From: Gammaproteobacteria bacterium
GTDB taxonomy: Bacteria; Pseudomonadota; Gammaproteobacteria; JASBUN01
Assembly (NCBI GenBank): GCA_030147845.1
Contig: JASBUN010000022.1
Span: 6,152 to 70,151 of the forward strand
DNA: 64,000 nucleotides
Reading direction: 5' to 3'
In this document: piece by piece, positions 2,235-62,537 of the stretch
Position numbering within the stretch: the stretch's first letter is position 1
Layout of the letters: each line of letters starts with the position of its first letter
The notes under the pieces: generated by a model
Database searches by the model: none
What the model was told of the DNA's origin: nothing
The model's input: the letters and a program-made list of their open reading frames with translations, nothing else
Made by a program: the position numbers and the translations under genes

Positions 2235-4205
2235 CTAACGTGGTGGTTTGATTCCGTATCGTTTCATTTTTCGATACAGGGTGTTCCGGCTCAGGCCGAG
2301 CTTGCGCGCCGCCTTGGCAATATTCCACCGTAAAGCTTCCAGTTCACGAAGTAGGGCCGTGCACTCGGCCATCGACAACGGGTCATCGAATGGCGTTTCC
2401 GGCTCAACTTGTTCAACCGTTTGTTCACTGGGCGCCGACAGAACGGTTGGTTGCTTTACCTCCGGCGGAAGATCGTCTACAGAAATGGCTTTACCGCCGC
2501 ACAAGGCGACCAGTGTCCTTAATATATTGCAGAGTTGCCGAATGTTGCCCGGCCAACTGTAGCGGGCAAGTATCTCCAAGGCTTCGTGGGTAATCGTCGC
2601 GTCGACATTGGCGCGATTTTGTTCCAACCAGAGCAATTTGGCGATGAGCTCGCGTTTATCGGTACGCGCTCGTAGCGCCGGCATGGTGATGCTCATTCCA
2701 TGCAAGCGGTAAAATAAATCTTCACGGAAGCGCCCGCTCTCCATTAATTCGGGCAAACTGCGGTGGGTGGCGCTTATGATGTTTACGTCGACTTTTTCAG
2801 GCGTTTCGCCACCAAGAGGTACGACTTCCTTTTCTTCCAGCACCCGCAATAATCGTGCTTGCAAAGCCAGCGGCATATCACCGATTTCGTCGAGAAACAG
2901 GCTTCCACCATTCGCCTGCGCAATTTTTCCTCGGCTACCTTTTCGGTTTGCGCCCGTAAATGCGCCAGGACGATAGCCAAACAGTTCACTTTCGATGAGC
3001 GATTCCGGAATGGAGGCGCAGTTCACAGCGATGAATGGCTTTCCTTGACGAACACTGCCATCGTGGAACGCTTTGGCAAATACGCCTTTGCCGGTACCCG
3101 TTTCGCCATATATGAGTAACGGGATATCCCGATCGGTGATCATGCGCGCGCGGCGGATATTTTCAGAAATTACGGCGTCGCTCGATTCCAAATGCTCGAA
3201 GCCGGCGCTTGTAGTGCGCTCGCGCTGCGGTCGTCCCTCGTCACTATCCCGCCTGGAGACCGGCGCGGGCGTTTTCAACGCGGCTTCCGGCAGTTGAACG
3301 ATACCGAAGAAGCGCCGGCCATCTTTGCTAGTGTGTATCGGCGTCGGATGGAAAGATTGACGTCGGCCGAGTGCGAGTAGTGCGTCGAGTGTGGTGTCGA
3401 ACACTTGGCTCAACGATTGACCCAGTACGTTGTCGCATTTGAGTCCGAGTTGGAACAGTGCGCTACGGTTGGCGCCAAGTACGTTGCCGGACCCGTCGAA
3501 CGCCAGCGCACCTTCGCCCAAGGTGCTAACAAATTCAGGCCGACTATGAAACCGCAGTATGAAGTCGTTTCGAAAGGCGCAAAGAAACAGGCGATTCTCG
3601 ATGGTCTGAGCCGACATGTTAACCAGTACCATCGTATGCTGCTGCGCCATACTGGACTCACTTGACGCATCTAATATCGCGATGGTCTTGCCGCGCGGAT
3701 CGACAATGGGCGCCGCCGAACACGTGAGGCCGGTATGCTGAGCGAGGAAGTGCGCCTCTTTGTGCACTACCAACGGTCTGCACTCGATTATGCAGGTTCC
3801 CATACCGTTGGTGCCTTGTGCCTCCTCGCTCCAGACCGCACCGTTTTGCAACCCGCTTCGGGCAGCGGCGTTGGTGAACAGTGGATCCCCTACATAGTTA
3901 AGTATCACGCCGTCCATGTCGGTAAGAAGAATGGCATAGCCGGAACCAGCCACTTGCTGGTAAAGACTGGTCATCTCATTCTTCGCCAATGCCAACAGGC
4001 GTGCCAAACGTTCTTGACGCTCATTGAGATCGGCGTGCGCGATGACGACCGGTTCGCGCCGGGCTAATGGGTCGAGTTGATAGTCGGCCGTACACCTTTG
4101 CCAGGATGTACGTACGGCGGGGTCCATTTGTGCAATTGCGTCTCGATTACCGGCTAGCACCGAATCGATTAACCGGATGTGTTCAGATGGCTGCGGATAT
4201 TGCAT
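2235..4205 (-). CDS. Sigma-54-dependent transcriptional activator, AcoR-like (N-terminal GAF-type sensor, AAA+ sigma-54 interaction domain, C-terminal Fis-type HTH)
   Basis: GETGTGKGVFAKAFH Walker A; ESELFGY...GAFTGA GAFTGA motif; C-terminal LSRNTLYRKMKRYGI HTH; 656 aa. Confidence 0.85.
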   Translation of the reverse strand: MQYPQPSEHIRLIDSVLAGNRDAIAQMDPAVRTSWQRCTADYQLDPLARREPVVIAHADLNERQERLARLLALAKNEMTSLYQQVAGSGYAILLTDMDGVILNYVGDPLFTNAAARSGLQNGAVWSEEAQGTNGMGTCIIECRPLVVHKEAHFLAQHTGLTCSAAPIVDPRGKTIAILDASSESSMAQQHTMVLVNMSAQTIENRLFLCAFRNDFILRFHSRPEFVSTLGEGALAFDGSGNVLGANRSALFQLGLKCDNVLGQSLSQVFDTTLDALLALGRRQSFHPTPIHTSKDGRRFFGIVQLPEAALKTPAPVSRRDSDEGRPQRERTTSAGFEHLESSDAVISENIRRARMITDRDIPLLIYGETGTGKGVFAKAFHDGSVRQGKPFIAVNCASIPESLIESELFGYRPGAFTGANRKGSRGKIAQANGGSLFLDEIGDMPLALQARLLRVLEEKEVVPLGGETPEKVDVNIISATHRSLPELMESGRFREDLFYRLHGMSITMPALRARTDKRELIAKLLWLEQNRANVDATITHEALEILARYSWPGNIRQLCNILRTLVALCGGKAISVDDLPPEVKQPTVLSAPSEQTVEQVEPETPFDDPLSMAECTALLRELEALRWNIAKAARKLGLSRNTLYRKMKRYGIKPPR

Positions 4206-11061: not shown

Positions 11062-11077
11062 TGGCACGACATTTGCT
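11062..11077 (+). promoter_or_regulatory. Candidate sigma-54 promoter TGGCACG-N4-TTGCT (perfect consensus)
   Basis: GGTGGCACGACATTTGCTCT has canonical -24 TGGCACG and -12 TTGC with correct spacing. Intergenic, about 400 nt upstream of the secreted DsrE-like gene. Confidence 0.5.
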
Positions 11078-11476
11078 CTGTTGACTGGAGGACGGTGCGG
11101 ACGACTTTCGCAACGTTATGGTGCCGCTCCGACAGGGCATCTGGAAAAATGGAAGCTATTTACATAAATGGCCTCCGAAATGATTGGTTTACCGAGCAGC
11201 AATAAGACTGAGCACGACTATGTGCAATCATCGTTGCTTTTTCGTTCGCAGACTTCGCAGGTCTTAGGGTCGGCGGTGCATTACACGGCACGTCCCAACT
11301 GCGACGCACTTTGATACGCAACTTAGTTTATCGATGCATGAATATACGTTGCATGACTCGATACGTGGAGAACGACTGGAAAGGGATAGCGTGTACGTAG
11401 AGGATGGCTGTTCATGCGTGATGCATTGGCGGCTTTTTCGCAAATTATAAATTTAGAACATCGGGAGGAGATCCAC

Positions 11477-11992
11477 ATGCTTACAAGCAAGCTAAGTAAA
11501 GTATGTACGAGCGCTATCTTTGGTCTGGTCGCAATGATGATTGGAGCAAGCAGTTACGCCGGTAGTGAACCGAACGATGCGCGCGCATTACACGGTTTGA
11601 CCTCGGCCAAGGCTATCTTCGACATTACCACCGCAAATCCGAAGAAACTGTATTTCTATTTGAACCTGATTGAGGCGACGGCGAAATCGATGGAGGCGCA
11701 AGGCGTAAAGCCGAAGTTCGTATTGGCGTTTCGTGGACCGGCGACATTCTATATGAGTAGTGACCGCAGTAAGATCAAACTCGAGGACGGCGAGATCGCG
11801 GATAAGATCGAGAAAAAGATCACCGAGCTCGGGCATGACCCAAATTTACATTTGGAGCAATGTTCCGTCGCTGCCCACGCCCTGCATGTCGACAAAAAAT
11901 CCATATATCGCCCGATCAAAGTCATCGGCAACAGTTGGATCTCGTTGATCGGATATGAAAACAGAGGTTACGCCATCGTTCCAGTGCGGTAG
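11477..11992 (+). CDS. Secreted DsrE/DsrF-like (YchN-like) family protein, paralog of 60820..61320
   Basis: Signal peptide MLTSKLSKVCTSAIFGLVAMMIGASSYAG; strong RBS GGGAGGAG 7 nt upstream of the ATG at 11477; conserved Cys context EQCSVAAHALHV and C-terminal VIGNSWISLIGYENRGYAIV are shared with the 60820 ORF. Family assignment is tentative. Confidence 0.45.
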   Translation: MLTSKLSKVCTSAIFGLVAMMIGASSYAGSEPNDARALHGLTSAKAIFDITTANPKKLYFYLNLIEATAKSMEAQGVKPKFVLAFRGPATFYMSSDRSKIKLEDGEIADKIEKKITELGHDPNLHLEQCSVAAHALHVDKKSIYRPIKVIGNSWISLIGYENRGYAIVPVR

Positions 11993-12815: not shown

Positions 12816-13346
12816 ATGCTGAAGAAGATACCGCTGGCGATCATTTTTGCTGTTGCGCTTGTATTCGGTACGGGTGGTACCGCGGGTGCGGCGGAAATGC
12901 AGACAATACAGGCCGTTCCGCAAAAGCCCGCTGCGCCGAATTTTACGTTGAAGGATTTGAACGACAAAACGCACAGTTTGTCTGATTTCCGCGGCAAGGT
13001 GGTTGCGGTAAATTTTTGGGCGACATGGTGCCCGCCATGCCGGAAAGAACTGCCGTCCATGCAGCGGGCCTATAAGGATTATCACAAAAAAGGTTTCGTT
13101 ATTCTCGGTGTCAACGAAGGCGAGGATTGGGATACGATCGCGCCCTTTCTTGAGAATTTCTCGCTGACCTATCCTATTTTGCTCGACAAGGAATCAACGG
13201 TTATCGGCAAGTGGAAAGTACTCGGTTTGCCAACCACGTTTATCGTCGATCGAAAGGGAAGAATCACACATCGAATCAATGGTGGGCGTGATTGGGATGA
13301 TCCCGCGTTCCGCAAGGCGTTGGAAGCCGCTATTGACGGTGATTGA
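12816..13346 (+). CDS. Periplasmic thiol:disulfide oxidoreductase, TlpA/ResA/CcmG-like thioredoxin family
   Basis: Signal peptide plus VNFWATWCPPCRKELP (the WCPPC active site typical of TlpA-like reductases). Confidence 0.85.
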   Translation: MLKKIPLAIIFAVALVFGTGGTAGAAEMQTIQAVPQKPAAPNFTLKDLNDKTHSLSDFRGKVVAVNFWATWCPPCRKELPSMQRAYKDYHKKGFVILGVNEGEDWDTIAPFLENFSLTYPILLDKESTVIGKWKVLGLPTTFIVDRKGRITHRINGGRDWDDPAFRKALEAAIDGD

Positions 13347-13515
13347 GTAACTCCTGTCAGCCATAACTACAGCTAAGTCGCAGCGGCTATCAGCCCGCTT
13401 TAGCGCGATTAGGTGGGTGGCTCGACAATGTCTTTGGGCTTGCGCCGATTCGGACGATAATTTCGCCGTCGGCGCCGGGCGTACTCGGGGGATTCAGGTG
13501 AAGATACAGAAATTT

Positions 13516-15375
13516 ATGGCGATGGTTGGCGCCGTCGTCATTGCAAGTACGATATGGGCGCTGCCGCTAAGCGCAGCGCACGCGGATTTTTTACCTCCTG
13601 AACAGGCCTTCGTGCTGGCGCAGCCGACGGTGGTGGATGGCGGGAAAGCGATCCTGTTGCAATGGAAAATCGTCGATGGTTATTACCTCTACCGCGATAA
13701 AATAAAAGTACGGGCTGGCGGCGAAGATCACGGTTTTAAGCTGGGCACGCCGGTAATGCCGGCCGGAAAAACGCACAAGGATCCAAGTTTTGGCACCGTG
13801 GTGGTTTACTACCATGAACTCCGTGCGCAGGTTCCGGTGTCGGGCGCTGCGGCCGGTTCGACCGTATTGCTTAAGGTGCGTTATCAGGGGTGCGCGGATG
13901 CAGGGTTATGCTATCCACCACAGACGCGCACGGTAAGTGTCTCAATGCCATCTGTGGGGGGAGGTGCGTCGACTGCCGCTGTGGCCACTTCGACGCCCGC
14001 GCCACCGTCGGGTACTGTGAGTCGGTCGCCCGCGGCACCCAGTGCCGGCACGCCCCCGGAGTCAGAGCAAGGGAAATTGGTCGAGCTGCTCAAGAACGGC
14101 AGCGCGCTGGCGATTATAGGCGCGTTCTTTCTTGCCGGTTTGGGCTTGTCATTAACGCCGTGTGTGTTCCCGATGATCCCCATTTTGTCCGGAATAATCG
14201 TCGGGCAAGGCGAAGGTATTACTACCAAGCGCGCATTCGGATTGTCGGCGATCTATGTCTTCTCGATGGCTGCTACGTATACGGTCGCCGGCGTTTTGGC
14301 CGGACTATTCGGCAAGAACTTACAGGCCAGTTTGCAGAATCCATGGGTGATCTCGGCGTTCGCCGCCATATTTATTGCGCTGGCTCTATCCATGTTTGGA
14401 CTTTACAACCTGCAATTACCTGCGAGTTGGCAAAGTCGTCTGACCGAAGCGAGTAATCGACAACGCGGCGGTACCCTGATTGGCGTCGGTGTCATGGGGT
14501 TTCTGTCAGCATTAATCGTGGGTCCCTGTGTCGCGGCGCCGATCGCTGCGGCCCTGATCGTTATCGGTCAGAGCGGTGATCCCGTGCTTGGCGGAGAGGC
14601 CTTGTTTGCCCTTAGTCTCGGCATGGGGGCGCCGTTGCTCCTGATTGGTACCAGCGGCGGAAAGCTGCTTCCACGCGCCGGCGCATGGATGAACACCGTC
14701 AAGGCTGTGTTTGGCGTGGTTATGTTGGGCGTAGCGATCTGGATGCTGGAGCGGATACTGCCAGGTCCGTTGACACTCGTGCTGTGGGGCCTGCTGCTGC
14801 TGGTAAGCGCGGCTTATCTTGGTGCTTTTGATGCGCTACCAGAGAAGATGAGAGGCTGGAGAACCCTCTGGAAAGGTTTTGGTATTGCTCTGGCGCTCTA
14901 CGGAGCGGCGTTGCTGCTCGGGGCATCGCTAGGTAGTGATGATCCATTGCAGCCGCTTGCGAGATTAGGCGCGGGCGGGATTGCCACGGCAACTGCCGAG
15001 CCGAGCCATGGGTTAAGCTTCGCTCGAGTTCGAAACTTGACCGATTTGCAAGCGAAGGTAAAAGCCGCGGCAAGTGAGGGGCGAATTGTTATGCTCGATT
15101 TCTATGCCGACTGGTGCGTGTCATGCAAGGAGTTAGAGCGAAACACATTCACGGATCCCGCCCTGCGTGCGCAACTGTCGAACGCAGTATTACTGCAAGC
15201 CGATGTAACCAAAAACAGTGCCGACGACATCGCACTGATGCGGGCTTATCATGTCATCGGACCACCAACGGTACTATTCTTTGGCGCCAACGGTAACGAA
15301 CGCTATAACCTTCGGGTAGTCGGATACCTCGACGCAAGCCAGTTTCGGGCCCGAGTGAACCGCGTAATCAATTGA
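13516..15375 (+). CDS. dsbD: Thiol:disulfide interchange protein DsbD (DipZ)
   Basis: N-terminal periplasmic domain, central membrane domain with CVFPMIP and GPCVAAP cysteine motifs, C-terminal thioredoxin domain DWCVSCKE. Start taken at the MAMVGAVVIAS signal peptide rather than the track start at 13417. Confidence 0.85.
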   Translation: MAMVGAVVIASTIWALPLSAAHADFLPPEQAFVLAQPTVVDGGKAILLQWKIVDGYYLYRDKIKVRAGGEDHGFKLGTPVMPAGKTHKDPSFGTVVVYYHELRAQVPVSGAAAGSTVLLKVRYQGCADAGLCYPPQTRTVSVSMPSVGGGASTAAVATSTPAPPSGTVSRSPAAPSAGTPPESEQGKLVELLKNGSALAIIGAFFLAGLGLSLTPCVFPMIPILSGIIVGQGEGITTKRAFGLSAIYVFSMAATYTVAGVLAGLFGKNLQASLQNPWVISAFAAIFIALALSMFGLYNLQLPASWQSRLTEASNRQRGGTLIGVGVMGFLSALIVGPCVAAPIAAALIVIGQSGDPVLGGEALFALSLGMGAPLLLIGTSGGKLLPRAGAWMNTVKAVFGVVMLGVAIWMLERILPGPLTLVLWGLLLLVSAAYLGAFDALPEKMRGWRTLWKGFGIALALYGAALLLGASLGSDDPLQPLARLGAGGIATATAEPSHGLSFARVRNLTDLQAKVKAAASEGRIVMLDFYADWCVSCKELERNTFTDPALRAQLSNAVLLQADVTKNSADDIALMRAYHVIGPPTVLFFGANGNERYNLRVVGYLDASQFRARVNRVIN

Positions 15376-33401: not shown

Positions 33402-36400
33402 TTATTGTACCGGCCGGCGAAGCCACACGCGCAGCAACGCTAGCAGCTGCGCAACATCAATGGGCTTTGCCATGTAGTCAGATGCACCCGCTTCAATGCA
33501 CTTTTCCCTGTCGCCCTTCATGGCCTTGGCGGTGATTGCGATCATCGGTAGATGTTCAAAGTTGTCCAGCGAGCGAATGGCCCGCATGGTATCGTAGCCA
33601 TCCATATCGGGCATCATCACGTCCATTAGTACGACATCGATGCTAGGATTGCTTTTAAGCATAGTGACGGCGTCGTTGCCGTTTTCCGCGTATACCACTT
33701 CCATTTCCTGCTCTTCCAGTACACAGGTCAGCGAAAAAATGTTGCGTATGTCATCGTCGACGATGAGCGCTTTTTTCCCGGATAGCACGTGGTCGGTATG
33801 ACTGAGTTGCCTGATCATATCCTGCTTATCCGGGAGCATTTTGCTTACCGGGACGTGCATGAGGAGAGCAGTCTCACTGACCAGCCGCGCCGGAGAGCTG
33901 GCGTCCTTGGTGATCACCGATTCAGCGTGGTCCCACAAAGCGCTTCGGTCGGCCTGGTTTAACTCCTTTGCCGTGTAGATGATCATCGGCACCGATTTCA
34001 ACTTCTTATTTTCGCGTAGCGCCTTTAGTAGCTCCAGCCCGTCCATATCCGGTAAGGTAAGATCGATCACAATACAATCGTAGCTTTTTGTTCGCAGTGC
34101 TTGAATGGCGTCCGCGGCGGTTCCTACTCCTTCGGCGACCGTTTGATTAGCAGTTAACAAGGAACTGAGGTATTCGCGTTGAATATCTTGATCTTCAATG
34201 ATCAAAATCCGCCGCTCGGCGCGCTCGTAAAGCGCTTTTAGATTTTTGAGTATACTAGCAATCTCCGCTTTACCAGCCTTTTTCCGAGTGCATCCCGCAG
34301 CGCCTTTCATGAGGCCACGCGGAATGTTGGTACGAGTGGAAATCATCTGCACGGGAATGTGCCTCTTTGCCAGATCGTGCTTGAAAAGATCGAGCACGGC
34401 CCAGCCGTCCATGTCGCTGATGCTTGAGTTGAGAAAAATTGCCGATATCACGTACTTGGCGGACAGCGACAGGGCTGCGGTACCGGTCCATGCGATAAGG
34501 ACTTTCATGCCGAGCGTATGAGCTATAGTTCGGACCTTTTCACAAAATTCTTTATCGCCATCGATAATAAGAAGAACGGTGTCGCCATCACGCAGCGAGG
34601 TACGGTCGTCTGCCGGTATGTCGTCGTGTTCGATGCGAAGCTCCGGTGCCTCGACCGTTTCTTCTATGACGATGTCACGGGCGGACGAAAATGCCGATTG
34701 CACGTCTACGTGCGTACTATTTCCCGTAATCAATGGCAAAAACAATGTGAAGGTGCTCCCTTGATTAGGCGCGCTGGTTACGGTCAGCTCACCACCCAGT
34801 CGGCGTGCGATCTCTCGGCTAATGGACAGTCCAAGCCCGGTACCGCCGTATTTACGGCTGGTGGTGCCATCGGCCTGCTGAAAGGCTTCAAAGATAATCA
34901 TTTGTTTGTCGGCCCGAATGCCGATACCGGTGTCCGATACCGCAAATGCAACGATCGAATCGGCCGATTTCAGAATTTCATTGTCTGCGGACCAACCATG
35001 CGATGCCAATTCCATACGCAGACTGACGGAGCCTTTTTCGGTAAATTTGAAGGCGTTGGAAAGCAGATTTTTAAATATTTGCTGTAGTCGTTTGGCGTCG
35101 GTCTGGATTGTAGGCGGCAAGCGATTGTCGATCTTGATGGAAAAATCGAGTTGCTTGTCATGAGCGAGTTGCCGAAAGGTGCGCTCGACATAGTCGCGCA
35201 TGTCTTCGAAGCGTTCATTGCCCATTTCCAGCGTAAACGTGCCCGACTCGATTTTGGAAAGATCAAGAATGTCGTTGATCAGTGCCAGTAGATCTGATCC
35301 GGCCGAATGGATCGTCTTGGCAAATTCCACTTGCTTGGGTTGCAAATTGTTGGCCGGGTTGTCGGAAAGCAGGCGCGCCAAGATCAGCAAACTGTTTAAG
35401 GGAGTCCGAAGTTCGTGCGACATATTGGCCAAAAATTCGGATTTGTACTTGGAAGCCAGCGCCAGCTGCTCGGCTTTTTCTTCCAACGCAACCTTGGCCA
35501 GTTCGACCTCGCGGTTTTTCAACTCCACCTGTGCTTTCTGTTCAGATAGCAGACGGGCTTTCTCTTCCAGCTCGCTATTGGTCGTTTGCAACTCTTCCTG
35601 TTGCGCCTTTAACAATTCCTCCGACTTACGAAGATTTTCGGCTTGCTGTTCCAGCCGATCATTCGTGTTTTTGAGCTCCTGCTGCTGACTTTGCAGTTCC
35701 GCCGTGAGCGACTGCGATTGTGTAAGAAGATCCTCCGTACGCATATTGGCTTCGATGGTATTCAATACGATGCCAATACTCTCCATGAGTTGGTCGAGAA
35801 ATGATTGATGGGTTTCGCTGAAGGCGCCAAACGAGGCCAGTTCGATTACAGCTTTTACTTCGCCTTCAAACAGCACCGGCATGACAATAATATTGCGCGG
35901 CGTGCTTTCACCGAGACCGGAGTGGATCTTGACGTAGTCGCTCGGCACCTTATCCATGAAAACACGTTTCTTTTCGTAGGCGCACTGACCGATAAGTCCT
36001 TCTCCGAGCTGAAAGCGATTCGGAACCGCATTCTTGCCCTTATAGGCATAGGAGGCCTGCAATTCCAGCGCCGCTTCTTTGCCATAGACTTTAGTGATAT
36101 AGAATACGCCGTGCTGTGCGTTCACCAACGGTGCGAGTTCCGATAGCACCAAGCGGCAGACGGTCAGCAGGTCGCGCTGTCCCTGCAGCATTTTGGTAAA
36201 TTTGGCGACGTTCGTCTTGAGCCAATCCTGTTCGGTATTTTTTAACGTCGTTTCGCGCAGGTTACTGATCATCTCGTTGATGTTGTCTTTCAACGAGGCG
36301 ACTTCACCGGAGGCCTGTACGGTGATGGAACGCGTCAAGTCGCCCTTGGTCACCGCAGTGGCGACTTCGGCGATGGCGCGAACCTGTGTGGTGAGGTTGG

Positions 36401-38966
36401 CGGCAAGCTGATTGACGTTGTCGGTCAGGTCGCGCCACAGGCCAGCGGCGCCCGGCACCTTGGCTTGTCCGCCGAGTTTTCCTTCGATACCGACTTCACG
36501 CGCGACGTTGGTTACCTGGTCTGCAAACGTCGCTAGCGTATCGATCATGCCGTTGATCGTGTCGGCCAGGGCGGCGATCTCGCCTTTCGCTTCCACCGCC
36601 AACTTGCGCTTCAAGTCACCATTGGCCACGGCGGTCACGACGTCGGCGATGCGTCGTACTTGGTTGGTCAAGTTGGCGGCCATGGAGTTTACGTTGTCGG
36701 TCAGATCTTTCCAGATGCCGCCGACACCGAGAACGTTGGCTTGGCCGCCGAGCTTGCCTTCGGTGCCGACCTCGCGCGCCATGCGCGTAACTTCCGAGGC
36801 GAACGACCCGAGCTGATCGACCATGGTGTTGATGGTGTTCTTGAGCTCCAGAATTTCGCCCTTTACGTCCACCGTGATTTTTTTGGAGAGATCGCCGCGC
36901 GCCACTGCCGTGGTTACGTCGGCTATATTGCGCACCTGTCCGGTCAGGTTGCTGGCCATGGCGTTGACGTTGTCGGTTAAATCTTTCCATGTGCCTGCGA
37001 CGCCACGCACTTGCGCCTGTCCGCCGAGCTTGCCTTCGGTGCCGACTTCACGCGCGACACGTGTCACTTCCGAAGCAAACGAGTTGAGCTGATCGACCAT
37101 GGTGTTGATGGTGCTCTTCAGCTCCAGAATTTCGCCCTTTACATCCACTGTGATTTTTTTGGAGAGGTCACCGCGCGCTACCGCCGTGGTCACTTCGGCG
37201 ATGTTACGCACCTGACCGGTCAGATTTCCGGCCATGGAGTTGACGTTATCAGTGAGGTCCTCCCAGATCCCATCCACGCCGGGAACGTTGGCCTGTCCAC
37301 CCAATTTGCCTTCGGTGCCGACTTCGCGCGCTACGCGTGTGACCTCCGAGGCGAACGAATTGAGCTGGTCCACCATCGTATTGATGGTGTTTTTCAATTC
37401 CAGGATTTCACCTTGGACATCGACCGTGATTTTCTTCGATAAATCGCCACGCGCCACGGCGGTGGTTACATCAGCGATGTTGCGCACTTGGCCGGTAAGG
37501 TTGCGCGCCATGGCGTTAACGTTATCGGTCAGGTCCTTCCACGTCCCGGCGACGCCACGCACCTCCGCCTGTCCGCCGAGCTTGCCGTCGGTACCCACTT
37601 CGCGCGCAACACGCGAGACTTCAGACGCGAATGAGCTGAGCTGATCCACCATCGTATTGATGGTATTTTTTAGCTCCAGAATTTCGCCTTTCACGTCTAC
37701 CGTGATTTTTTTTGATAAATCGCCGCGTGCCACGGCGGTGGTCACATCGGCGATGTTACGTACCTGACCGGTGAGGTTGCCGGCCATGGAATTGACGTTA
37801 TCGGTCAGGTCTTTCCAGGTGCCGCCGACGCCGGCGACGTTGGCTTGGCCACCGAGTTTGCCCTCCGTGCCGACTTCGCGCGCAACGCGCGTGACTTCCG
37901 AGGCGAAGGAATTGAGCTGGTCGACCATCGTGTTGATGGTGTTCTTCAATTCGAGAATTTCGCCTTTGACGTTGACGGTGATTTTTTTCGACAGATCGCC
38001 GCGCGCCACGGCGGTGGTCACATCGGCGATGTTACGCACCTGCGATGTCAGATTGGCGGCCATCGAGTTGACATTGTCGGTAAGGTCTTTCCAGATGCCG
38101 CCCACGCCGCGCACGTCGGCTTGGCCGCCGAGTTTGCCTTCGGTGCCGACTTCGCGCGCGACGCGCGTGACTTCCGAGGCGAACGAGCCGAGCTGGTCGA
38201 CCATCGTATTAATGGTGCTTTTCAACTCCAGAATTTCGCCTTTGACGTCGACCGTGATTTTCTTCGACAAATCGCCGCGCGCCACCGCAGTGGTGACCTC
38301 GGCGATATTGCGCACTTGATCACGCAGATTGGCGGCCATCAAATTTACGCTGTCGGTGAGATCCTTCCAGGTGCCGGCCACACCCTTGACCTTGGCTTGC
38401 CCGCCGAGCTTACCTTCGGTACCGACTTCGCGCGCGACGCGGATGGTTTCCGTAGTGAAGGAGTTGAGCTGATCAGCCATGGCATTGACCACTTTGCCGA
38501 TGCGCAGAAACTCACCTTGGAGTGGATAGCCGTCGATTTCCAGTTGCATGCGCTGACTCAGGTCACCCTTGGCCACCGCGCCGATAACGCGCGACATTTC
38601 ACTGGTCGGTTTGACCATGTCGCTGATGAGGTTGTTGATGGAATCGATGCCATCGGCCCATGCGCCGGTGACGTTACCGATGCGCGCGCGCTGTGAGATC
38701 ATGCCCTGCTTGCCGACCACGAGGCTGACGCGCGCCAGCTCTTTGCCCATCATATCGTTGAGTTCGACGACATCGTTGAAGGCGTCCGCCAGTTCCTGGC
38801 CCAGAGCGGAGTCGGTACTCGGCATATGGACCGAGAAGTCGCCGCGCTTGAGTGCTTTGAGCGCTCTGAGTAACTGGCGGGCGTGGTTTGCATCGACGCC
38901 GGCTGATTCGCTGAAATGCGTTGCCAACTCGGCCTGGGCGGTGGCACTCAGGTCTTCTCGTGTCAT
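33402..38966 (-). CDS. Giant soluble hybrid sensor histidine kinase: poly-HAMP array (about 10 HAMP-like units including eight 92-aa tandem repeats) - GAF - coiled coil - HisKA - HATPase_c - three receiver domains
   Basis: 1854 aa with no TM segment. Eightfold repeat [18 protein letters not shown]...[59 protein letters not shown] domain ([13 protein letters not shown]). H-box [12 protein letters not shown]. HATPase VSDTGIGI...[22 protein letters not shown] domains ([10 protein letters not shown]..., [10 protein letters not shown]... and one degenerate). Confidence 0.85.
36190..38440 (-). repeat. About eight tandem 276-bp (92-codon) repeats inside the giant kinase CDS, roughly 85-90% nucleotide identity by eye
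   Basis: Recurrent DNA blocks such as GAGCTGATCGACCATGGTGTTGATGGTG...CAGAATTTCGCCCTTTAC...GTGATTTTTTTGGAGAG/CGACA. This also produces long antisense ORFs in the track (for example 36412..38696 +). Confidence 0.8.
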
Positions 38967-44148: not shown

Positions 44149-44239
<91 letters not shown>

Positions 44240-44443: not shown

Positions 44444-44564
<121 letters not shown>

Positions 44565-57407: not shown

Positions 57408-59114
<1,707 letters not shown>

Positions 59115-59144
59115 TCAAACACGGGTACGGTATGTTATTATCAT

Positions 59145-59654
59145 CGCATGATTACTGCGAAGCGCAATCTGCTGGAGATGTTGCTCAAACGTCGGCAATT
59201 CACCGGACTCATGGAATTGTATGAAATTAATTATCGTTTGCTGCATAAGCTGATTCCTGCCCTCGAAGCCATTTCGTCTTCGGCGGTGTCACACGTTTCC
59301 GGTTCGCCGGATCTGCATCTCCGAGTCGAGCAACGATGCAAGTTCACCACCATGTTATCGCTCACTTACTATTTTGACTCCGAGGCGGGCGATGCGGTGT
59401 GCAACCCGGATTTGCGGATCCGCATGTATCACGACGCCCGTTTGGCCGAGGCCATGACCGGTCGGTCGGGTGACTTTCCGTTGATGACGCTGCCGGATAG
59501 CGGCGAACCAGGCGCGGTCGGGCGCAAATGGGATGGCAACTTGTTCCTCGAGAAATGGCTAGTCTACACGCTGGCGCAAGGTCACCGGTTTGGCCTTGAT
59601 GATGTGATCGACGACGCCCACGAGGCGTCCGACGAGCGTCTTGAGACGAGTTAA
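59145..59654 (+). CDS. DUF1249 (YqiB-like) protein
   Basis: ELYEINYRLLHKLIP ... IRMYHDARLAEAMTG ... LEKWLVYTLAQGHRF parallel E. coli YqiB blocks. The track start at 58950 overlaps pgm and is rejected. Confidence 0.6.
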   Translation, partial: RMITAKRNLLEMLLKRRQFTGLMELYEINYRLLHKLIPALEAISSSAVSHVSGSPDLHLRVEQRCKFTTMLSLTYYFDSEAGDAVCNPDLRIRMYHDARLAEAMTGRSGDFPLMTLPDSGEPGAVGRKWDGNLFLEKWLVYTLAQGHRFGLDDVIDDAHEASDERLETS

Positions 59655-59933: not shown

Positions 59934-59959
59934 TATTCTTGACTAAATTAGTCAGGATA
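59934..59959 (+). promoter_or_regulatory. IscR type-1-like palindromic operator (ATTCTTGACTAAATTAGTCAGGATAT) overlapping a sigma-70-like promoter
   Basis: About 20/25 match to the IscR type-1 consensus ATASYYGACTRWWWYAGTCRRSTAT. Core inverted repeat TTGACTAA-ATT-AGTCAgg. Lies 75 bp upstream of the Rrf2 gene in an AT-rich region. Confidence 0.5.
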
Positions 59960-60033
59960 TAGATACTTCTGGACAGGTTACGAATACTTTTATTTATCTG
60001 GTTAACGTCTAAAAATCCTGAGGAGGCGGACTT

Positions 60034-60516
60034 ATGAAACTGTCAACGAAGGCCCGCTATGCGGTCACTGCAATGATGGATCTTGCATTGCACGAGAAGT
60101 CCCACCCGGTAACCTTGGCGGATATTTCCCATTATCAGGGAATTTCGCTCTCGTATCTGGAGCAGCTGTTTGCCAAGCTGCGCAAGAAGGGGCTTGTTAG
60201 TGGGGTGCGGGGCCCAGGTGGTGGTTACCGATTGGCCCGCCCTGCCAGCGAAATCAGCATTGCCGAAGTGGTAGCGGCGATCAATGGTACCGAGGAACAG
60301 GTGTTCAAGGGTGACGCTCCTGCGAATGAACCGAACAATGATCGGGACAAGCTCGAGGTCATGTGGAGCAATCTGAGCAACAAGATTTACGACTTCCTCG
60401 ATGACATCACTCTGGACGAATTTGTGCAGGGCGGTCACACGGAATCTGCGGGAGGCACTGAACCGCGACAAAGCTATGGTGACGCGACGCACCACGGAAG
60501 GTCCGAAGCGGCGTGA
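60034..60516 (+). CDS. Rrf2-family transcriptional regulator, IscR-like but lacking all Fe-S-ligating cysteines
   Basis: N-terminal 85 aa closely parallel E. coli IscR (KARYAVTAMMDLAL...LADIS..QGISLSYLEQLF.KLRKKGLVSGVRGPGGGYRLAR), yet the protein contains no Cys at all. No iscSUA genes follow; GAGGAGG RBS. Confidence 0.75.
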   Translation: MKLSTKARYAVTAMMDLALHEKSHPVTLADISHYQGISLSYLEQLFAKLRKKGLVSGVRGPGGGYRLARPASEISIAEVVAAINGTEEQVFKGDAPANEPNNDRDKLEVMWSNLSNKIYDFLDDITLDEFVQGGHTESAGGTEPRQSYGDATHHGRSEAA

Positions 60517-60819
60517 AAGTAGTGGCTCAACCGAGCGCATGGTTGACGCCGGGATCGATGTTTCCCGGCGTCGCCGTCGGTGGGTTGACGCCCGCTCCAT
60601 TTTCGCCTGTCTAAGCCGTCGGTTCACCCACGCTGGCCGTGCTTACCCGTTGAAAGACCTCATCCACTCCTGCCCCAGCAGACCCAATCCGCGTTTTGTC
60701 GCCGCATTCGTCGATACCCGTCGATGAGTTTTTACTTGTGCGTTGCAGCGTGCTTCGCACTTGCTCGCGCGCGAATGTGACACTACAGTGTCATTCTTAC
60801 CTCAGAAAAAGGATGGCTA

Positions 60820-61320
60820 GTGATGTCGACTCGATGGCTGAATATTGGCGCGGCGATTCTGTTGTTACTGATGTTGGCGCCTATGGCGCACGCGACAGAC
60901 AGCAGCGACACCCTGGTCGAAGCTATGATTCGCGCCGAACAGCCACCCGAAGGCGTAGTGTTCGAAGTCGTTAGTAGCGACCCCAGTGGCCTGCAGTGGG
61001 CCTTGCCGCGCATTCGTGACTACGTCAAGCGCTTGCGTGCACGTTTTCCTGGCCTGGAGATGGCCGTGGTCACGCACGGGCGAGAAGAGTTTTCGTTGCA
61101 AACGAAAATGAACGAGCGTTACGCCGAAGTGCACGGCGAGGTTCGCAGCTTGGTGCAAGATAGTGACGTGCCGGTACATGTGTGCGCGGCCTACGCTGAG
61201 ACGCGCGGTGTAGAGCCACAAGATTTCCCCGACTACGTCCAAGTGGCTCCGCATGGACCGATTCAGATTCAAAATTATGAGGCGCTAGGCTATACCCTCG
61301 TTCGCGTACAAAAGCCATAG
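60820..61320 (+). CDS. Secreted DsrE/DsrF-like family protein, paralog of 11477..11992
   Basis: Signal peptide MMSTRWLNIGAAILLLLMLAPMAHA; conserved VPVHVCAAYAETRGV Cys context and C-terminal VQVAPHGPIQIQNYEALGYTLVRV align with the 11477 ORF. Confidence 0.45.
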   Translation: MMSTRWLNIGAAILLLLMLAPMAHATDSSDTLVEAMIRAEQPPEGVVFEVVSSDPSGLQWALPRIRDYVKRLRARFPGLEMAVVTHGREEFSLQTKMNERYAEVHGEVRSLVQDSDVPVHVCAAYAETRGVEPQDFPDYVQVAPHGPIQIQNYEALGYTLVRVQKP

Positions 61321-61346: not shown

Positions 61347-62537
61347 CTAGAGACGCATGCGCACGATCTGGCCGATTTCCGCGTCCGTGAGTACGATCGG
61401 ATTGGTCTTCATGCTGCTACCGCGGCTGTGCTCAACGATGTGCTTCAGGTCGGTATCGGCGACACCATAGGCAGACAGTCGCTGCAGATGTAATTGCTCG
61501 GTCCATTGCTCCAATACTTTCAGCAATGCCTCGTGGGCGTGTTCATCGGTGCCGACATCGTGTGAGGCCAACAGGGCGCCCAGGCGCGCGTATTTTGTCA
61601 GCGCCGGATTATCGGCATCGCGTTGTCGCAGAGCTTCAATATTGATACGCGTGGCCGCAGCGACCAGCGTACCGCAGACGACGCCATGCGGGATGGGAAA
61701 GAATGCACCCAGCGGTGACGCCAAGCCATGCACCGAGCCAAGGCCGGTCTGCGCCAGGGTTATGCCGGATAACATGGACGCATAGGCCATGCCCCGTCGC
61801 GCGGCGGTTTGCTTGGCGCCGCCTTGGTAACACGCCATTAGACTATCGCGTGCTGCTTCGATGCCGCTCAGCGCCAAGGCATCCGTGAGCGGGTTGGCGC
61901 GCGTCGACAGATAAGACTCCATTAATTGTGTAAGCGCATCCATGCCGTTGGCGGCGATCAGCGCCGCCGGGCACGTGGCCAGGAATGCCGGGTCGACGAT
62001 GGCTACTGCCGCGACCAATTGCTCGTCGCGAAACGACTTTTTGAACCCATCGCGGCCTTGTTTGCTGAGCACCGCGTTCTTGGTGGCTTCGCTGCCCGTA
62101 CCGGCGGTGGTCGGTACGGCAATAAAGGGTAGTGGCGGGCCGACGTAAGGCCGTTCCGGGCCGACACCCTCGAGATGATCCATGACCGAATTCCCGCACG
62201 TTAGCAGGCCGGCGACAGCTTTGGCCGCGTCCAGCACACTGCCGCCACCGATGCCAACGACTACCTCCGTTCCGCCACCAGTATGGTCAGCGACGATGGC
62301 ATCGACCAGTTCGGGCGATGGCTCGCCACGCACGCGTACCCGTTGCCAATCGATACCGTGCCTTTGTAACGCATTGACGAAGGGCGGCCACTGCGGCGCG
62401 GCGTCCAGCGATGAGCCGCCGGTTACCAGTAGTACGCGTTTTCCATAGCCGCGGATTACGTCCGGCAGACGGTCGAAGGCGCCATCGCCGAACTCGATGT
62501 GCGGCAGCCTGGCGATGGCAAAAGGCGGAATTACCAT
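61347..62537 (-). CDS. Iron-containing (group III) alcohol dehydrogenase family protein
   Basis: GGGSVLDAAKAVA NAD-binding motif and His-rich metal site. Start taken at the internal Met (MVIPPFAI) for about 396 aa; the track start at 62621 is a non-ATG codon. Confidence 0.75.
   Translation of the reverse strand: MVIPPFAIARLPHIEFGDGAFDRLPDVIRGYGKRVLLVTGGSSLDAAPQWPPFVNALQRHGIDWQRVRVRGEPSPELVDAIVADHTGGGTEVVVGIGGGSVLDAAKAVAGLLTCGNSVMDHLEGVGPERPYVGPPLPFIAVPTTAGTGSEATKNAVLSKQGRDGFKKSFRDEQLVAAVAIVDPAFLATCPAALIAANGMDALTQLMESYLSTRANPLTDALALSGIEAARDSLMACYQGGAKQTAARRGMAYASMLSGITLAQTGLGSVHGLASPLGAFFPIPHGVVCGTLVAAATRINIEALRQRDADNPALTKYARLGALLASHDVGTDEHAHEALLKVLEQWTEQLHLQRLSAYGVADTDLKHIVEHSRGSSMKTNPIVLTDAEIGQIVRMRL

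Follow-up and report, generated by a model that had tools for sequence, protein, structure and literature searches.

The locus described here raises the question of whether a regulator that has lost all four ligands of a [2Fe-2S] cluster can go on using the operator of its cluster-binding relatives. It lies in a 64-kb stretch of DNA (hereafter the window; contig JASBUN010000022.1 of assembly GCA_030147845.1, from a gammaproteobacterium of the lineage JASBUN01), and comprises a gene for a cysteine-free regulator of the Rrf2 superfamily, a promoter with a putative type-1 operator of the IscR kind, and a following gene for a predicted exported protein of the DsrE fold. In Escherichia coli, type-1 operators are bound only by cluster-loaded IscR (holo-IscR), and type-2 operators by both holo-IscR and the cluster-free form, apo-IscR (PMC8593673). 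An earlier, sequence-only reading of the locus had proposed a cluster-independent regulator that kept the IscR operator and turned it to a different target, possibly sulfur trafficking. The first part of this proposal is borne out by a conserved, ligand-free type of IscR with an operator apparently retained by descent, but the new target found no motif support.

A ligand-free relative of IscR

The regulator gene is an uninterrupted open reading frame (ORF) of 160 codons, none of which encodes cysteine. The protein scores well above the cut-offs of the Rrf2 superfamily models (PF02082, 126.4 bits against 30, E=1e-36; TIGR00738, 134.2 bits against 73.3). Among NCBIfam models the two IscR equivalogs rank first, but both scores fall short of the cut-off (TIGR02010, 151.5 bits against 207.55; NF008110, 143.1 bits against 275). 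Of the other named families, CymR comes closest (NF047409, 95.2 bits against a cut-off of 195); the HypR model gives E=0.005 and NsrR is also far away. Alignment with E. coli IscR shows 54 of 85 identical residues (64%) over positions 1-85 and 11 of 50 (22%) over positions 86-135, with the ligands C92, C98, C104 and H107 replaced by G93, E99, D105 and E108. Because all four ligands are lost, the regulator cannot sense Fe-S (iron-sulfur) status via a cluster. By sequence it is IscR-like at its DNA-binding end, much as the sequence-only reading had described, yet it departs from IscR on two defining tests, the ligands and the equivalog score.

The nearest solved structures are those of E. coli apo-IscR (Protein Data Bank (PDB) entries 4HF0 and 4HF1, E=3e-37). 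A winged helix-turn-helix occupies residues 1-85 of the protein and is followed by the former cluster loop, which is variable (about 86-101), by the helix for dimerisation (102-123) and by a disordered tail that ends in SEAA. In the AlphaFold2 model the winged helix and the long helix 102-123 are confident and the former loop and tail are poor, with predicted local distance difference test (pLDDT) scores of 81-95 for residues 1-80, about 52-71 for residues 81-100 and below 50 for residues 139-157.

A frameshift that might conceal a cysteine-bearing C-terminus was looked for and is excluded, because the ORF aligns with IscR from end to end, the protein is identical in four assemblies and dozens of Cys-free homologues exist. 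The four identical copies lie on four other contigs, each assembly deriving from a different sequencing run, and the nearest relative of the source organism in the Genome Taxonomy Database (GTDB) has 78% identity at the regulator protein. Protein searches returned a long series of ligand-free homologues at 55-80% identity, interleaved with canonical CX5CX5C IscRs at about 60%. In a neighbour-joining tree built solely from columns outside the ligand loop, with a single outgroup, no support values and the nesting within canonical IscR left unresolved, 79 Cys-free sequences form one pure clade, and all 79 are without cluster ligands. The signature substitutions of this clade are G7A, C34Y, V83I, D84N, T106L and L109M. 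An alignment of 38 diverse members shows no change in the recognition helix (I37-F46), the wing (R59-Y65) or the core of the dimer helix; the DNA-contact residues of IscR (S40, Y41, E43, Q44 and R59) are all kept, and the former cluster loop varies in both length and sequence. In total, 44 positions are invariant despite only 52-77% identity between members, which points to strong purifying selection on the regulator. Moreover, searching 1.84 billion representatives with the clade profile gave 106 alignable top matches (representatives at 50% identity), and in 55 of them the ligand loop is free of cysteine, which shows that the diversity of ligand-free IscR-like proteins reaches far outside the 79-member clade.

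The C-terminus of the regulator reads GRSEAA (codons 60499-60516) and falls in the tail that is disordered in the AlphaFold2 model. An ending in AA is found in 42 of the 86 ligand-deficient and 34 of the 105 canonical sequences that were sampled, with VA, IA and SSF among the other endings. The tail looks like a degradation tag of the ssrA/ClpX type at the C-terminus and seems to have been inherited from the canonical IscR of these lineages.

Separate, partial losses of the ligands were seen outside the main clade at L019/P0064, L070/L086, L065/P0117 and L087 (L-numbers are labels of related loci), which come from metagenome-assembled genomes (MAGs) of Acidihalobacter (L019), Thiotrichales (L070 and L086), Competibacterales (L065) and Thiogranum (L087). 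The L065 regulator has one cysteine in all, none at the ligand positions, and an IscS-like gene directly 3' of it. A single cysteine is left in the regulators of L070 and L086, where the type-1 site is kept at 20-23 of 25 positions, and the L087 regulator has CX6CX5C spacing at a locus that shares the neighbouring gene for an iron-dependent alcohol dehydrogenase (Fe-ADH).

The operator and promoter of the regulator gene

Of the 25 positions of the E. coli type-1 consensus ATASYYGACTRWWWYAGTCRRSTAT, the putative operator agrees with 21; the next best site in the window reaches 19 of 25, and 20 block shuffles of the window yielded no site as good as 21. Its core palindrome, TTGACTAAATTAGTCA at 59939-59954, is the sole match in the 64 kb at up to three mismatches, and the near-consensus palindrome of the sequence-only reading is unique in the window. 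The operator extends over the -35 hexamer and the greater part of the 17-bp spacer of a predicted sigma-70-type promoter (-35 TTGACT at 59939-59944, -10 GATACT at 59962-59967). Twelve related loci retain the site, and in 10 of them the -10 core ATACT stands at the same spacing; the ribosome-binding region AGGAGGCGG is kept in L005, L006, L011 and L012.

Canonical iscR promoters of related taxa carry two type-1 sites, namely site A, ATACTTGACTnnTTTACTnGGTAT, over the -35 hexamer, and site B, AACCTACTAAATTAGTnGG, about 30 bp downstream. The Cys-free loci have site A only, at -83 to -110 from the ATG, and site B is missing in every one. Site A reaches at least 18 of 25 positions in 12 of 19 distinct Cys-free lineages, or in 13 if a weaker 19/25 match in L174 is counted; it stands at 18-22 of 25 in the window, L005, L006/L012, L007, L011, L091/L093, L110, L115, L142 and L152, and is marginal in L013. 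Across some 190 kb of related loci, site A is almost the sole type-1 match of at least 20/25, the only match outside a regulator promoter being a tandem repeat in L008. In the subclade of the window the right half-site reads AGTC[A/G]GG, which is more symmetric than the canonical ACTnGG, and the GG pair (59956-59957 in the window) is invariant in all retained sites A. This pair corresponds to the CC that is contacted by Glu43 in IscR-DNA structures (PMC5411485). The spacer positions that have been retained suggest a bound protein, since the surrounding non-coding DNA is unalignable at these distances. On sequence grounds, the type-1 operator is one kept by descent from canonical iscR promoters. 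A scan of the window with the type-2 consensus gave two weak matches only, both inside distant genes, and no good match near local promoters; an Rfam scan of 59-62 kb returned nothing.

Chromosomal position

In the window and its close relatives the gene order is pgm(-), DUF1249(+), regulator(+), dsrE-like(+), Fe-ADH(-) and ABM(-), and the neighbours of the regulator in the window comprise pgm, DUF1249, Fe-ADH, ABM, glcDEF and a rhodanese gene. The DUF1249 gene is called as 187 aa in the identical contigs L001 and L002, and the Fe-ADH gene, a neighbour conserved across related loci, as 396 aa in L001. The window, most of the Cys-free loci and many loci of canonical IscR share the order pgm(-)/DUF1249(+)/regulator(+); the pair pgm(-)/DUF1249(+) also precedes the Cys-bearing iscR of Thiothrix, Thiolinea, Cocleimonas, Leucothrix, Thioalkalivibrio and many MAGs. 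Because this synteny is common to both types, the regulator gene is the positional orthologue of iscR, and the two types were never found together at one locus. The genes iscSUA-hscBA-fdx lie 3' of canonical iscR at the pgm-DUF1249 locus in some Thiotrichales, and in many other genomes iscR stands alone there, which implies that separation from the isc genes predates the loss of the cluster or is independent of it. No canonical IscR, isc or suf genes were seen in the 64-kb window or in flanks of up to 10 kb in 19 related lineages. The observation that iscS, iscU and iscA do not follow the regulator thus holds in the window, but detachment from the isc genes is nothing special, given that canonical IscR is stand-alone at the same locus in many genomes of Thiothrix, Cocleimonas and Thioalkalivibrio. 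In distant clade members an exported two-domain rhodanese lies between DUF1249 and the regulator; tblastn found no remnant of a lost rhodanese in the 380-bp gap between these two genes in the window.

Another canonical arrangement occurs in gammaproteobacterial MAGs, in which a five-cysteine iscR, with two textbook type-1 sites upstream, is followed by a lone iscU (NifU_N). It was seen in L014-L021, L023, L028, L029, L032, L033, L042 and L057, and in L015 the genes after iscU (checked with Pfam) are aconitase B, then crcB, serS and others.

The downstream DsrE-fold gene and its spacer

The next gene was thought to encode a secreted DsrE-like protein, and this assignment is upheld by a predicted, Sec-type signal-peptide-like N-terminus (LAPMAHA/TDSS) and by the modelled fold. 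The match to PF02635 is below the gathering score (15.8 against 22.7 bits, E=0.017), and the NCBIfam scores are also below their cut-offs. Despite this, assignment to the DsrE fold appears sound because the AlphaFold2 model is confident (pLDDT 93.3) and Foldseek matches it to PDB entries 1l1s, 2pd2, 2qs7, 2hy5, 1jx7 and 2d1p with probability 1.0, E-values down to 2.6e-7 and template modelling (TM) scores of up to 0.83 on the target. The top Foldseek matches are all DsrE/DsrF-like, DsrEFH, YchN or TusBCD, except for a designed protein cage at rank 2. Several of 156 homologues are named DsrE family or carry PF02635, and a precomputed PF02635 match exists in some homologues at 43-55% identity. 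Cys121 is invariant in 38 aligned homologues, all of which have hydrophobic, signal-like N-terminal segments, and it lies within the stretch aligned to positions 59-87 of the TusD profile, which is the TusD active-site region. The protein resembles the DsrE/TusD/YchN superfamily in its fold and conserved cysteine, and differs from it in being predicted to be exported and single-subunit, with a mature length of about 140 aa and a predicted extra N-terminal helix.

Association of this gene with the regulator is partial. The two genes are separated by only 26-82 bp in L007, L009, L091, L093, L115, L142 and L152, and spacing as short as this in several subclades suggests that both were probably transcribed from the site-A promoter. 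L011 and L173-L176 have no dsrE-like gene downstream of the regulator, and in L005 it lies 5.6 kb away; tblastn found no remnant of it in L011. The regulator is upstream in only 8 of 80 metagenomic DsrE-like loci (L091-L170). The neighbours at these loci include exported rhodanese-like, TauE/SafE-type permease, thioredoxin-like, Crp/Fnr-like and MoaA-like genes, most of them assigned by resemblance; an exported single-domain rhodanese-like gene is directly upstream in 8 DsrE-like loci, and the MoaA neighbour was confirmed by a Pfam gene table in one NCBI genome. The ORFs located after canonical IscR in Competibacteraceae (166 aa) and in Cocleimonas (121 aa) were considered as possible dsrE-like genes and rejected, one being PNPOx-like and the other without a family match.

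The spacer that separates the regulator from the dsrE-like gene in the window is 306 bp long and highly structured, the fold of 60517-60822 having an energy of -118 kcal/mol (z = -4.6). Compared with L171, the region upstream of the regulator is 99% identical, whereas the spacer (306 against about 550 bp) can hardly be aligned beyond the first hairpin and the CACTACAGTG motif, the stretches concerned being 60606-60822 of the window and 9520-10000 of L171. The spacer has the look of a local rearrangement hot spot between near-identical flanks. The inverted repeat that contains the motif (Table 1) is not IscR-like, and from its sequence could be an operator or an RNA hairpin. Hairpins with other stem sequences, in which pairing is kept, occupy the same intercistronic place in L007 (8466-8530), L115 (4891-4962), L152 (4893-4974) and L142 (948-1017); they have energies of -25 to -33 kcal/mol in 65-82 nt, with a clear U-run in L152 only. 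By analogy with the E. coli iscR-iscS spacer (PMC8593673), of which they are reminiscent, such hairpins may act as an intercistronic stabiliser or attenuator.

Table 1. Features of the regulator locus, in window coordinates
Feature	Position	Strand	Basis
DUF1249 (YqiB-like) gene, upstream neighbour of canonical iscR and of the Cys-free regulator	59091..59654	+	PF06853, E=4e-23
IscR type-1-like operator (predicted), homologous to site A of canonical iscR promoters	59935..59959	.	Consensus match
Sigma-70-type promoter (predicted)	59939..59967	+	Consensus scan, 9/12 matches
Ribosome-binding site GAGGAGG, 7 nt 5' of the regulator ATG	60020..60026	+	Read from sequence
Cys-free IscR-derived Rrf2 regulator, 160 aa	60034..60516	+	Pfam/NCBIfam models, alignments, AlphaFold2
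Stable GC-rich hairpin GACGCCGGGA-N8-TCCCGGCGTC, shortly after the regulator stop codon	60545..60572	+	RNA fold; kept in L171
Terminator-like hairpin, then TTTTTACTTGT (predicted)	60706..60739	+	Consensus scan; 3 G-C pairs; site count no higher than in shuffles
Inverted repeat TGACACT-AC-AGTGTCA, 30 nt 5' of the dsrE-like start	60778..60793	+	Core CACTACAGTG kept in L171
Predicted exported DsrE-fold protein, 165 aa, Cys121 in VPVHVC	60823..61320	+	Homologues, AlphaFold2, Foldseek
Fe-dependent alcohol dehydrogenase family gene, downstream neighbour on the opposite strand	61347..62537	-	Pfam Fe-ADH, E=6e-42

Comparison with known Rrf2 regulators

The regulator shares with E. coli and other gammaproteobacterial IscR the Rrf2 winged helix, an identical recognition helix (GISLSYLEQLF), the wing RGPGGGY, a type-1 operator over its own promoter, and a chromosomal position common to the canonical iscR of related taxa. 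Unlike IscR, it is without Cys92, Cys98, Cys104 and His107, scores below both equivalog cut-offs, has no isc genes downstream, has one operator in place of two, and carries a variable acidic linker where the cluster loop was. E. coli apo-IscR (C92A/C98A/C104A; the protein of 4HF0 and 4HF1) resembles it in being cluster-free with an intact DNA-binding head; however, that protein is a laboratory variant that binds type-2 and not type-1 sites (PMC5411485), whereas the natural regulator keeps a putative type-1 site. The single-Cys IscR of Rhodobacter sphaeroides, which is described in the cited account as a new type of Fe-S-binding protein and heads an isc-suf operon (PMC4618611), also has a reduced set of cysteines, but the regulator has none at all, and no isc or suf genes nearby.

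CymR, SifR and HypR resemble the regulator as Rrf2 proteins without the three-cysteine motif, but their sequences lie much further from it. Sensing by SifR and HypR relies on a cysteine, and the regulator differs from them in having no cysteine of any kind; the CymR operator also differs from that of the regulator. In the accounts cited, these proteins (CymR in Bacillus and Staphylococcus) respond to the CysK partner, quinones and thiol oxidation as inputs (PMC9218516, PMC6067689).

Mode of action and rival explanations

On balance, we lean towards the view that the regulator is a cluster-independent, self-repressing derivative of IscR that still uses site A. It would remain a dimeric winged-helix DNA-binding protein with the reading head of IscR unchanged, most likely binding the single retained type-1 operator over its own -35 hexamer and spacer without a cluster, and this binding would repress its own transcription. 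In the ancestral state the site-A promoter would also have driven the exported DsrE-fold gene, usually next to an exported rhodanese, a coupling that may have been loosened in the window by the 306-bp structured spacer, the terminator-like element and the separate conserved motif. Candidate modulators of the regulator include a partner protein, a small ligand, and turnover via the conserved alanine-rich C-terminal tail. A more far-reaching version takes the regulator to be a natural IscR able to bind type-1 operators without any cluster, locked in a holo-like mode by G7A, C34Y, D84N, T106L and L109M together with an extended dimer helix, with its input moved elsewhere (for example to proteolysis via the alanine-rich C-terminus), and to represent a widespread, as yet unstudied class in environmental bacteria; as a whole, this is rather doubtful. 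Several points weigh against continued use of site A. In E. coli the cluster-free protein gains type-1 binding only on replacement of Glu43 by alanine (PMC5411485). Every aligned member of the clade retains Glu43, and the TT unfavourable to apo-IscR stands in the left half-site, so that by strict analogy with E. coli the regulator should bind its own site poorly. In addition, half of site A is the -35 hexamer, which would be conserved in any case, and site A has decayed in L008, L165, L009, L173, L175 and L176, where autoregulation through it is evidently dispensable. The true occupant of site A might be a canonical IscR encoded outside the area searched (the 64-kb window and the flanks of up to 10 kb).

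The last of these points leads to an alternative in which the regulator is a permanent apo-IscR that acts on type-2-like sites elsewhere (e.g. by activating suf or repressing other genes), a second, canonical IscR occupying site A; expression of the Cys-free protein would then still report Fe-S status. This is unlikely, even though the E. coli rule for the two operator types speaks for it, as does the block that an invariant Glu43 places on apo binding to type-1 sites (PMC5411485), and two IscR-type genes per genome are plausible because other gammaproteobacterial MAGs have a canonical iscR elsewhere, as in iscR-iscU-acnB. It is countered by the failure of the window scan to find a good type-2 match near local promoters, by the loss from every Cys-free locus of site B, which belongs to the canonical holo-IscR architecture, and by the more palindromic right half-site in the window's subclade, which fits continued binding by a co-evolving protein; the lack of a canonical IscR, isc or suf gene in the area searched is weak evidence in the same direction. 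Still less probable is a dedicated regulator of an exported rhodanese and DsrE-fold sulfur-transfer pair, sensing through a partner (as in CymR-CysK) or a small molecule. In four subclades most lineages do have a dsrE-like gene after the regulator, often at 26-82 bp, an exported two-domain rhodanese lies 5' of the regulator in L007-L010, L013, L091, L093, L115, L152, L165 and L174, the wider DsrE-like family often adjoins exported rhodanese-like genes, and CymR comes next after IscR among named families, though far under its cut-off. However, a search of the window and the roughly 190 kb of related loci found no IscR-type site before dsrE-like or rhodanese genes. Upstream of either dsrE-like gene in the window (the second is described below) there was neither a type-1 nor a type-2 match, with no palindrome at up to three mismatches and nothing reaching 19/25; the palindrome that the sequence-only reading suggested looking for there is lacking. 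Furthermore, the dsrE-like gene is missing or displaced in the lineages given above, 72 of the 80 DsrE-like loci are without the regulator, the window's own gene has a conserved motif of its own and is set apart by hairpins, and the hypervariable former cluster loop is unfit for a conserved ligand pocket. With the 306-bp spacer and a pairing confined to part of the clade, the evidence on the suggested sulfur-trafficking target is mixed, and motif support for it is lacking. Finally, loss of the sensor residues, of site B and, in some lineages, of site A might suggest a decaying, functionless remnant of iscR, or an assembly or frameshift artefact behind the Cys-free state, but this is highly improbable for an intact ORF that aligns end to end with IscR and yields the identical protein in four independent assemblies, with the recognition helix, wing and dimer-helix core among 44 invariant positions in a large and old clade.

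The argument over how its cluster switches IscR between type-1 and type-2 sites still draws on mutants and NsrR structures, there being no structure of holo-IscR (PMC5411485). The clade amounts to a natural experiment in this respect, combining the exact reading head of IscR, Glu43 included, and a type-1 site with a permanent inability to hold a cluster. If these proteins do bind type-1 DNA, the handful of clade-specific substitutions points to the residues by which the signal of the cluster is passed on; otherwise, retention of the site implies that one IscR-type protein cross-regulates another. Moreover, annotations of 'IscR' in metagenomes hide many proteins that are unable to sense Fe-S status. 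Full-text searches of the literature returned laboratory cluster-free IscR, the single-Cys IscR of Rhodobacter, and CymR, SifR and HypR, but no account of a natural ligand-free IscR clade.

The second DsrE-like gene and other features of the window

A second dsrE-like copy at 11478-11992 had been credited with a sigma-54 promoter, and both parts of that claim were recovered. The gene is a distant paralogue of the one downstream of the regulator (20% identity, pairwise E=1e-5, with the cysteine aligned), and a predicted sigma-54 -24/-12 consensus, TGGCACGACATTTGCT, occurs with zero mismatches at 11062-11077 (+), about 400 nt 5' of it. A candidate picked by eye at 11427-11442 has five mismatches and was set aside in favour of this site. 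The paralogue is followed by a TlpA/AhpC-like thioredoxin gene (12816-13346) and then by a full DsbD gene (13417-15375). Roughly 7 kb upstream, at 2235-4205 (-), is a gene for a sigma-54 activator with a GAF domain, adjoining an NMT1/SsuA-like ABC transporter. From its gene content, the neighbourhood of the paralogue looks like a sigma-54-controlled periplasmic thiol or sulfur module.

The window also contains a giant ORF of 1854 aa at 33402-38966 (-), and giant ORFs of similar size lie near the regulator in L007 (1885 aa, no Pfam hit) and L173 (1806 aa). A tRNA and a small bacterial signal recognition particle (SRP) RNA, at 44149-44236 and 44456-44552 (+), stand just 5' of dnaX-recR and are ordinary.

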